64,000 bases of DNA from a virus: positions 1 to 64,000 of IMG/VR virus record IMGVR_UViG_3300045004_000088, one strand, 5' to 3'. Under the pieces are notes generated by a model, which worked only from the letters and a program-made list of their open reading frames with translations, did not search any database and was not told the DNA's origin. Below, in pieces: positions 25,860 through 26,365 of this stretch. Every line of letters begins with the position of its first letter. Within the stretch, counting starts at the first letter, position 1. The position numbers and the translations under genes were made by a program.

Positions 25860-25868
25860 CTATATACC
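25860..25868 (+). promoter_or_regulatory. CTATATACC motif 5 nt upstream of the ATG of the SD-less gene 25874
   Basis: Read directly; same motif at 33062 and, as CTATAATACC, at 51461. Confidence 0.4.
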
Positions 25869-25873
25869 TACTC

Positions 25874-26365
25874 ATGAACCAAGATATTGACCAAATGTTG
25901 GAAGCCGTCGAGAACGACATACTGCCGGCCGCACCGGAAGTCATGGCTCCGCTCCCAGATCAGCGACCGCTCTCGGCCTCGACCCCAATGTTCGAGGACG
26001 ACGAGATGTTGGGCCTGTGTGCCGAAATCCTCACGAACATGAGGAGCGACCGCAAACAGATCGACACGCTAATAGCCAACTTCGTTGAAATGGTGTTCAA
26101 CGAAGGTAACAGCCAGCCGGCAACCAAAGAAGCCCTAGTGGGGTTGGTGAATACGAAGGCCGGCATGTCGGACAAGATGATGGGCATCGTCAAACTGATG
26201 GCGAGCTTCAAGTTGAAAGAAATGACGACGACCGCCGGACCCAAGTCGGTCACGGCGAGTCAGGAAAACCACTACCACTTCTCCGGTACACGTCGCTCCT
26301 TCCTTGAGCAGCTTGAAAAACGGATGAAGGCCAAGAAAGACAAGGAGAAGAAGACCAATGAGTAA
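25874..26365 (+). CDS. hypothetical protein (163 aa)
   Basis: ORF track; no SD. Confidence 0.5.
   Translation: MNQDIDQMLEAVENDILPAAPEVMAPLPDQRPLSASTPMFEDDEMLGLCAEILTNMRSDRKQIDTLIANFVEMVFNEGNSQPATKEALVGLVNTKAGMSDKMMGIVKLMASFKLKEMTTTAGPKSVTASQENHYHFSGTRRSFLEQLEKRMKAKKDKEKKTNE

Follow-up and report, generated by a model that had tools for sequence, protein, structure and literature searches.

A conserved CTA-N-ATA box next to start codons in huge phages: candidate single-element promoters of leaderless mRNAs

The stretch of viral DNA studied here (the window) is 64,000 nucleotides (nt) long and covers positions 1 to 64,000 of the IMG/VR record IMGVR_UViG_3300045004_000088. In this window and in many relatives of the phage, a short conserved box lies 2-7 nt upstream of the ATG of a small group of genes that have no ribosome-binding site. 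The core of the box is CTA-N-ATA (CTATATA, CTAAATA, CTAGATA or CTATAATA), and in this phage it is often followed by CC. It is probable, though by no means certain, that the box is a single-element promoter without a -35 element, and that a polymerase with a gp55-type phage sigma factor would read it to make mRNAs starting at or near the ATG. An original prediction, made from the letters of the window, had proposed promoters of leaderless transcripts at three genes. This reading is supported in silico by the position of the genes at the heads of transcription units, conservation in relatives, tight arrangements of box and start codon, the occurrence of the same box at a distance from other genes, and a bias for ATG start codons.

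Genes of the window were mapped by codon usage, and family searches were done with Pfam and PHROGs. The window comes from a myovirus-type huge phage with baseplate gp25, wedge and spike genes, an open reading frame (ORF) of 2599 amino acids (aa), a CCA-adding enzyme and a vault-like gene, and its own contig is at least 254 kilobases (kb) long. The three boxes of the original prediction (sites 1 to 3, Table 1) were present exactly as quoted, with the spacers listed there. Their proposed common form, CTATA(T/A)TACC, describes the third site, which is its one match, but not the first two. These are the 9-mer CTATATACC, which has two exact matches in the window, and site 3 differs from it by one extra A. 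Relaxing one position exposed a back-to-back divergent pair (sites 4 and 5) with 47 base pairs (bp) between the two ATGs. An alternative in-frame ATG at 7902 would put the box of site 5 inside the ORF. The 7-mer CTAAATA occurs in the window at 7875-7881 (minus strand), 7905-7911 and 1768-1774, and CTATATA and CTATAATA are one base or one insertion away from it.

Table 1. Box sites and related promoter-like elements in the window (SD, Shine-Dalgarno sequence; positions of minus-strand elements are given as recorded)
Feature	Box	Positions	Strand	Distance to start codon	Start codon and gene	Sequence or remark
Site 1	CTATATACC	25860-25868	+	5-nt spacer	ATG 25874, gene 25874-26365 (163 aa)	cCTATATACCtactcATG
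Site 2	CTATATACC	33062-33070	+	2-nt spacer	ATG of gene 33073-33567 (164 aa)	gCTATATACCgcATG
Site 3	CTATAATACC	51461-51470	+	3-nt spacer	ATG of gene 51474-52493	aCTATAATACCtgcATG
Site 4	CTAAATACC	7881-7873	-	3-nt spacer	ATG 7869, gene 7174-7869	No SD; gCTAAATACCcgcATG at 7881-7867
Site 5	CTAAATACC	7905-7913	+	3-nt spacer	ATG 7917, gene 7917-8360	No SD; gCTAAATACCgacATG at 7905-7919
Site 6	CTAAATAAG	1768-1776	+	2-nt spacer	ATG of gene 1779-3056 (425 aa)	gCTAAATAAggcATG / CTAAATAAggcATG
Variant box	CATAAATAG	55234-55242	+	3-nt spacer	ATG of gene 55246-55704	No SD; CATAAATAGctcATG
Ambiguous box	CTAAATAGA	25352-25360	-	Directly upstream of ATGATG	Gene 23801-25351 (CCA-adding enzyme)	Ambiguous
Ambiguous box	CTAGATAGG	20922-20930	+	Upstream of the gene	Gene 20931-21515	Ambiguous
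Opposite strand of site 1	GTATATAgg (same TATATA palindrome)	25861-25867	-	41-nt leader with GAGGGA SD	Gene 25373-25819	Possible promoter
Leadered promoter-like element	TTATAAT	4167-4161	-	23 nt with GGGAG SD	ATG 4137	
Leadered CTATACT class	CTATACT	20909-20903	-	17 nt with GGGGA SD	ATG 20885	

Genes 25874, 33073, 7869, 7917 and 1779 (named here by their start positions) each open a unit where the coding strand changes (junctions 25819/25874, 32954/33073, 7869/7917 and 1744/1779), and thus a promoter must lie near each of them. Gene 25874 heads a plus-strand unit that diverges from gene 25373-25819 (minus strand), and gene 1779 is divergent from gene 1256-1744 (minus strand). Gene 33073 opens a long plus-strand run holding the 2599-aa ORF and the baseplate genes; baseplate families were matched downstream of it, in line with its predicted place at the head of a baseplate operon. 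Gene 51474 encodes, as had been proposed, a LAGLIDADG/helix-turn-helix homing endonuclease (LAGLIDADG_2, E = 4.7e-21), and it has foreign codon usage. The claim that all three genes open transcription units holds for genes 25874 and 33073, which are divergent heads. Gene 51474, however, follows a co-directional tail-fibre-like gene and is a presumed head.

The three genes had also been said to lack a Shine-Dalgarno sequence (SD), and the pairing energies agree. The duplex with the anti-SD has an energy of +0.7 kcal/mol at gene 25874 and +0.4 kcal/mol at gene 51474. At gene 33073, complementarity to the anti-SD is limited to an AAGG that precedes the ATG by 15 nt and is too distant to serve as an SD. 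Over genes 25874, 51474, 7869, 7917 and 55246, the energies lie between +0.7 and -3.1 kcal/mol. A GGGAG stands 14 nt upstream of the ATG of gene 1779, beyond normal SD distance. Most other genes of the window have the GGAG-type pairing that had been described for them, at -5.5 to -11 kcal/mol.

In the window, enrichment of the 9-mer is marginal on its own: allowing up to one mismatch, there are five matches where 1.67 would be expected, and this number is also reached in 3 of 100 shuffles. A composite test was made by taking CTA[ATG]A{1,2}TA followed by an ATG within 1-7 nt and comparing it with 300 dinucleotide-preserving shuffles. Eight such arrangements were observed; the shuffles had 0.197 on average and never more than 3. 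The core CTA[ATG]A{1,2}TA itself has 10 copies in the window (2.87 in shuffles), and 8 of the 10 are followed by an ATG that opens a long ORF. A two-hexamer sigma-70 scan of 20-36 kb gave hits at chance level and none at the box sites. Rfam (gathering thresholds) and tRNA scans found no family and no tRNA gene, and no known RNA element accounts for the sites.

Megablast of 25-34 kb against phage records gave no match, and a protein search gave LR756511.1 alone. A scan of IMG/VR with a single protein found no relatives, but an alignment-based scan did. The 491-aa protein encoded downstream of site 1 has 925 homologues, many of them on contigs of 300-600 kb. We compared the window with four syntenic loci (L002-L005), 80 IMG/VR loci and the complete genome LR756511.1 (595,163 bp).

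In 65 non-redundant loci (1.29 megabases), an ATG opening an ORF of 80 or more codons follows 4-8 nt after the box in 87 of 548 cases for CTA[ATG]ATA, most often at 5 nt, and in 12 of 794 cases for the reversed-sequence control. In the complete genome LR756511.1 (595 kb), 34 of 192 boxes abut an ORF-opening ATG versus 2 of 264 in the reversed control, so that the box is rarer overall than in the control. The motif is thus enriched at gene starts beyond the three sites first noticed. The leading C matters in this genome, since CTAAATA abuts such a start in 19 of 96 cases, TTAAATA in 5 of 136 and GTAAATA in 3 of 101. By crude gene calls, 39 of 889 genes in LR756511.1 (about 4-5%) are box-led. 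These genes stand at divergent junctions more often than others do (18/39 versus 152/848, p = 8e-5). Upstream of the 34 aligned boxes, no -35-like position is conserved apart from a weak A-tract.

Conservation was counted over non-identical loci as a TA-N-A(A)TA box 1-8 nt upstream of an in-frame ATG. Such a box precedes 62 of the 66 gene 25874 orthologues (consensus cCTATATAT(T)-N5-ATG) and 41 of the 66 gene 33073 orthologues (consensus gcCTAAATAA-N4-ATG, mostly CTAAATAA-N4-ATG, with the variants CATAAATAA and CTAGATAA). The gene of the CCA-adding enzyme served as a control, and just 6 of its 61 orthologues have an abutting box. Alignments with orthologues start at residue 1 of both proteins in L002-L004, and at residue 1 of the gene 25874 product also in L005, indicating that the ATGs at 25874 and 33073 are the real starts. 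The box is retained in phages that span 41% to 56% GC and probably have different hosts.

Two observations on starts in the relatives may be added here. In L002 (9520-9553), the public call of the gene 25874 orthologue begins 21 nt downstream of a box-led in-frame ATG, and this start is miscalled. LAGLIDADG endonuclease genes sit at differing genomic places (51474 in the window, 11522 in L003, 11339 in L004 and 10051 in L005). Those of the window and its close relatives each have a box-like sequence just upstream (CTATAATACC, CTATAATAG, CCATAATGAAGGA), and a related L003 gene has gCTATAATAGaggcATG.

Some arrangements leave little space upstream of the box. A strong intrinsic terminator lies 10-22 nt upstream of it in nine loci (L006, L007, L015, L017, L018, L023, L028, L051 and L063), and a similar order of terminator, box and ATG is seen in LR756511.1 at 400576, 520135 and 523428. 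A strict terminator detector gave 2 hits, and a lenient one gives false positives (139 hits in a differently defined control of 1961 first-ATG ORFs); the nine loci are the clear cases that were retained. At 30457 (minus)/30486 (plus) of LR756511.1, 28 bp separate two divergent ATGs, and this gap holds two opposed boxes. Because of these terminators and this divergent pair, an SD-bearing leader does not fit.

The same box is also found in relatives 20-115 nt upstream of genes that have an SD, and therefore it is likely to be a transcription signal and not a translation signal. In many orthologues of the CCA-adding-enzyme gene, the box is followed by 20-40 nt, a normal SD and the ATG (for example CTAAATAAtagcaaaGGGGAAGGtatacATG in L008). 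In L001, the identical 9-mer CTATATACC is followed by 21 nt with an AGAGGG SD and then the ATG of a divergent gene. The window itself has a leadered gtCTATACTg class that shares the CTATA core with the box (Table 1), with more minus-strand copies at 29913-29919, 20294-20300, 19178-19184 and 9401-9407. This class precedes minus-strand genes with leaders of 17-70 nt and GGAG-type SDs. The copy at 9401-9407 lies in a perfect 11-bp inverted repeat at 9383-9413 (gggacaccggc / gccggtgtccc), which has a 9-nt loop with CTATACT on the minus strand and no T-run. The repeat might be a terminator or might display a promoter in a hairpin.

Two features of the coding sequences agree with initiation without an SD. 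Start codons after the box are ATG in 125 cases, GTG in 8 and TTG in 7, while those of SD-led genes are ATG in 533, TTG in 92 and GTG in 67 (Fisher p = 9e-4). The first 36 nt of box-led ORFs also fold less (-2.31 versus -3.27 kcal/mol, Mann-Whitney p = 4e-5). Since orthologues are not independent, the start-codon bias and the weak 5' structure are supporting observations and not strong tests.

In LR756511.1, phmmer with T4 gp55 found no match, but a hidden Markov model of seven diverse gp55 proteins matched two ORFs. Both ORFs match phrog_234, the 'late sigma transcription factor' of the T4 gp55 family (2.9e-7 and 1.7e-4). In Pfam, no family is devoted to T4 gp55, which has a single weak match there, to DUF7674. 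The gp55-like proteins are about 175-190 aa long, contain Sigma70_r2 only and have 1184 homologues on contigs of up to 673 kb. L002 is the window's closest relative, and its 586-kb contig, JAWVGZ010000010.1, carries one member, P0283, with T4 gp19-type tube and sheath genes as neighbours. Two IMG/VR contigs carry both a gp55-like sigma gene and the 491-aa marker. The gp55-like genes are SD-led, with a box-like GTA(T/A/G)ATAGATACC 45-115 nt upstream. The bins that hold sigma-bearing contigs belong to four unrelated phyla or families, and no host was inferred from them. Among the 58 proteins of the window, there was no sigma factor and no RNA polymerase family.

Other sigma-like sequences were seen in LR756511.1. 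The second gp55-like ORF (124 aa), at 400576 on the plus strand, lies behind a strong terminator and then CTATAATAtggtATG; judged by this arrangement, it would be expressed from a box-led, apparently leaderless unit. At 190451-190840 (L089), an ORF has Sigma70 region 4 (Pfam 5e-12), and an overlapping ORF in another frame before it resembles region 2. The pair could be a frameshifted or split gene of the sigma-70 family.

From the anatomy of the box, its enrichment and conservation, the lack of a -35 element and of an SD, and the gp55-like genes of relatives, all shown here, we infer where transcription starts, which sigma factor is used and how the mRNA is translated. The predicted transcription start is about 6 nt past the final A of the box, which is either the A of the ATG or a position 1-3 nt away from it. 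Five bases between the box core and +1 fit genes 7869, 7917 and 51474 and the mode of the clade, and would place +1 on the A of the ATG. The core spacing is four bases at genes 33073 and 1779 and seven at gene 25874, and the start there would fall within 1-3 nt of that A. The mRNA would have neither leader nor SD, and ribosomes would bind the 5'-terminal AUG directly, by analogy with known leaderless mRNAs. The polymerase would most likely be the host core RNA polymerase with a phage-encoded minimal sigma factor of the gp55 type. Where the box is placed further upstream, it would drive ordinary leadered mRNAs with an SD.

The original prediction had taken TATA(T/A)T as a -10 hexamer. Its reading as a promoter is retained, but the element is better described as a CTA-N-ATA box of the T4 late type without a -35 element. 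The T4 late promoter is TATAAATA at -13 to -6, read by gp55 without a -35 element, and the late consensus of Aeromonas phage Aeh1 is CTAAATA, starting at -12 (PMC1524935). The late promoter of cyanomyoviruses is NATAAATA (PMC1524935, PMC2984593). T4-type late promoters are read by gp55 together with gp33 and the gp45 clamp. Like them, the box is a short A/T-rich single element without a -35 element, and the Aeh1 consensus is the very same 7-mer. Positions of -13 or -12 to -6, as published, reproduce the modal spacing found here if +1 is the A of the ATG. Relatives have genes for minimal sigma factors of the gp55 family, and further T4-type genes are those of the tail tube (gp19) and the baseplate (gp25). 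There are also differences. The promoters here are fused to the start codon, and T4 late mRNAs carry leaders with an SD. Furthermore, the CTATATA and CTAGATA variants are common here, and the box is also found before non-structural genes and a homing endonuclease gene. As to a possible role in late genes, site 2 heads the run of tail and baseplate genes, while a homing endonuclease gene, a sigma-like gene and genes of unknown function come after other boxes.

Bacterial leaderless genes are similar in layout. In Deinococcus-Thermus and Actinobacteria, leaderless genes have a -10 motif (TANNNT) adjacent to the ORF, which in Deinococcus-Thermus is an established signature of such genes (PMC12340547). 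In Deinococcus radiodurans, the -10 motif alone suffices as a promoter (PMC12340547), and promoters of this kind do without a -35 element (PMC12340547; PMC3160421). There as here, a -10-like motif lies a few bp upstream of the start, no SD is present, and a GGAG-led majority of genes exists alongside. However, the box is a feature of phages, its sequence is CTA-N-ATA and not TANNNT, it is found across the clade despite differing GC and at about 4-5% of genes, and its reader is probably a phage sigma factor. Leaderless transcription with an adjacent -10 element is also known for lambda cI from PRM.

Promoters of the phiKZ and AR9 type were set aside. Early promoters of these phages (AAATATATATTAT-N6-G+1) are read by a virion multisubunit RNA polymerase and resemble the box in having an A/T-rich TATAT element at a fixed short distance from the transcription start. 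However, the 5' untranslated regions of AR9 are 26-491 nt long, and no leaderless transcript was detected for phiKZ. These phages encode their own RNA polymerases, whereas in the relative LR756511.1 a motif test found no [NDAS]ADFDGD beta-prime motif in any ORF of at least 50 aa. In poxviruses, the TAAATG initiator of late promoters overlaps the ATG and is read by the virus's own polymerase, and the mRNAs gain a poly(A) leader by slippage. The likeness of an element that overlaps or abuts the start codon is an analogy only, since poxviruses are eukaryotic viruses.

Several points weigh against the box being a leaderless promoter read by a gp55-type sigma factor. Within the clade, spacers as short as 1 nt and as long as 8 nt occur, and the two identical boxes of the window stand 5 nt and 2 nt from their ATGs. 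Because these spacers differ by 3 nt, a rigid start distance cannot put +1 on the A at both gene 25874 and gene 33073. In LR756511.1, about half of the box-led genes come after an ORF in the same direction, with a median of 15 nt between the two. The stop codon of that ORF is there a TAA or TAG within the box, so that termination-reinitiation is conceivable in these cases. At several boxes (genes 1779 and 25351, and a minus-strand gene in L002-L004), the ATG is preceded at 9-15 nt by a GGAG that might act as a long-spaced SD on read-through transcripts. No gp55-like gene is among the 58 proteins of the window, and the sigma factor of this phage is thus presumed. In LR756511.1, phmmer with T4 gp45 gave no match. 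Moreover, since the gp55-like gene has a box-like element upstream, the box cannot depend on the gp55-like sigma factor alone. Finally, orthologous sites are not independent, and the p-values given above overstate the evidence.

It is rather unlikely, though some evidence fits, that the promoters are leaderless and the box is a plain -10 element for the host's primary sigma factor, so that no phage sigma factor would be needed. The variant CTATAATA contains a perfect TATAAT, the leadered CTATACT class of the window fits TANNNT, and a -10 element alone is a sufficient promoter in Deinococcus radiodurans (PMC12340547). The box-like element before the gp55-like gene also suggests that some variants are read before that sigma factor exists. 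However, most boxes end in A (TAAATA, TATATA, TAGATA), and the -10 element of sigma-70 needs a T at -7. A canonical sigma-70 promoter was rejected for this reason, together with the lack of a -35 element and the chance-level result of the two-hexamer scan. The importance of the leading C, as in the gp55-type motif of Aeh1, and the retention of the box in phages of differing GC and probably different hosts also argue against the host-sigma reading.

We regard it as improbable that the genes are transcribed as parts of longer mRNAs on which the box is an SD-independent RNA signal (an A/U-rich enhancer, a standby site or a stop-restart reinitiation site). The closely spaced co-directional genes of LR756511.1, the TAA or TAG within the box and the long-spaced GGAG at some boxes would fit such a signal, and the strict box in LR756511.1 has no clear second peak at leader distances. 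However, no co-directional gene lies upstream of genes 25874, 33073, 7869, 7917 and 1779, and the terminator-box-ATG arrangements and the 28-bp divergent pair leave no upstream transcript. The same box precedes, at 20-115 nt, genes with their own normal SD. Specific bases are needed (C, T, A, then A, T, A), beyond A/U-richness, and the reversed control shows no peak.

It is very improbable that the box is an operator of a phage regulator or a by-product of AT-rich intergenic DNA without a direct role in transcription start: TATATA is palindromic and the boxes lie in short intergenic DNA that is AT-richer than coding DNA, but CTAAATA and CTAGATA are not palindromes, no enrichment is seen for the reversed control, which has identical composition, distances to the ATG form a sharp peak at 4-8 nt, and the rarity of the strict box away from starts in LR756511.1 fits a functional signal.

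The remaining boxes of the window are less clear. The variant box at 55234 is not matched by the expression CTA[ATG]A{1,2}TA and is a candidate internal promoter within a plus-strand run. The minus-strand box at 25360 is ambiguous because AGGAG lies just upstream of it. The box at 20922 was rejected as a leaderless site, since its orthologues in L003 and L004 have no abutting ATG but retain caaaggaaa. It is probably a promoter whose transcript has a leader of about 24 nt with an AAGGA SD, and the gene would then truly start at the ATG at 20955. On the opposite strand of site 1, the palindrome might also be the promoter of gene 25373-25819.

Pfam and PHROGs searches of the box-led genes and their neighbours gave no further families. 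Gene 29972-32302 (minus strand) is major-vault-protein-like (Pfam MVP_shoulder, 6.7e-21, and Vault_3), and an 881-aa counterpart is conserved in L002. The ORF 29645-32041 (plus strand) was rejected as a shadow of this real minus-strand gene. Gene 23801-25351 (minus strand) encodes an enzyme of the CCA-adding or poly(A)-polymerase family (PolyA_pol head domain, E = 4.1e-20). In relatives, a gene for HAD_SAK_1 ('Swiss Army Knife RNA repair') is found close to that of the CCA-adding enzyme, suggesting that the two form a tRNA repair module. At 42000-44000, the GC content drops to 43% from about 56% elsewhere. This region covers gene 42259-43692 (477 aa), which was missed by the codon-usage score, and it may be foreign DNA. 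The plus-strand ATGs at 4196 and 4245 are 49 nt apart and are followed by the same ten bases (ATGGCAATTCTCA), which resembles a short duplicated gene start.

Both parts of the proposed system, the T4-type late promoter and the leaderless gene with a -10 element next to the ORF, are known, and their clade-wide fusion in huge phages as a conserved class appears to be undescribed in the literature searched. No paper that connects leaderless mRNAs to huge phages or megaphages came up in full-text searches. Huge phages have been reported to encode initiation factors and ribosomal proteins. A survey of huge phages covers SD usage and translation genes and not the box (Al-Shayeb 2020). It is doubtful, and at present speculative, that the box-led genes form a dedicated leaderless regulon, in which unit heads (virion operons, the second sigma-like gene, endonucleases) would be transcribed via a gp55-like sigma factor and translated independently of an SD. 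If so, these genes would be expressed while the phage remodels or shuts down SD-dependent initiation in the host, for example through phage initiation factors and ribosomal proteins.

The box offers a simple rule for finding unit heads and true start codons in uncultivated huge phages, where gene callers tuned to SDs can miss such starts. If the proposed mechanism is true, promoters of the T4 late type that are read by a minimal sigma factor would have merged with start codons throughout a large phage clade of global distribution. Leaderless translation would then be a regular part of gene expression in huge phages, and this would bear on why huge phages carry translation-initiation genes.

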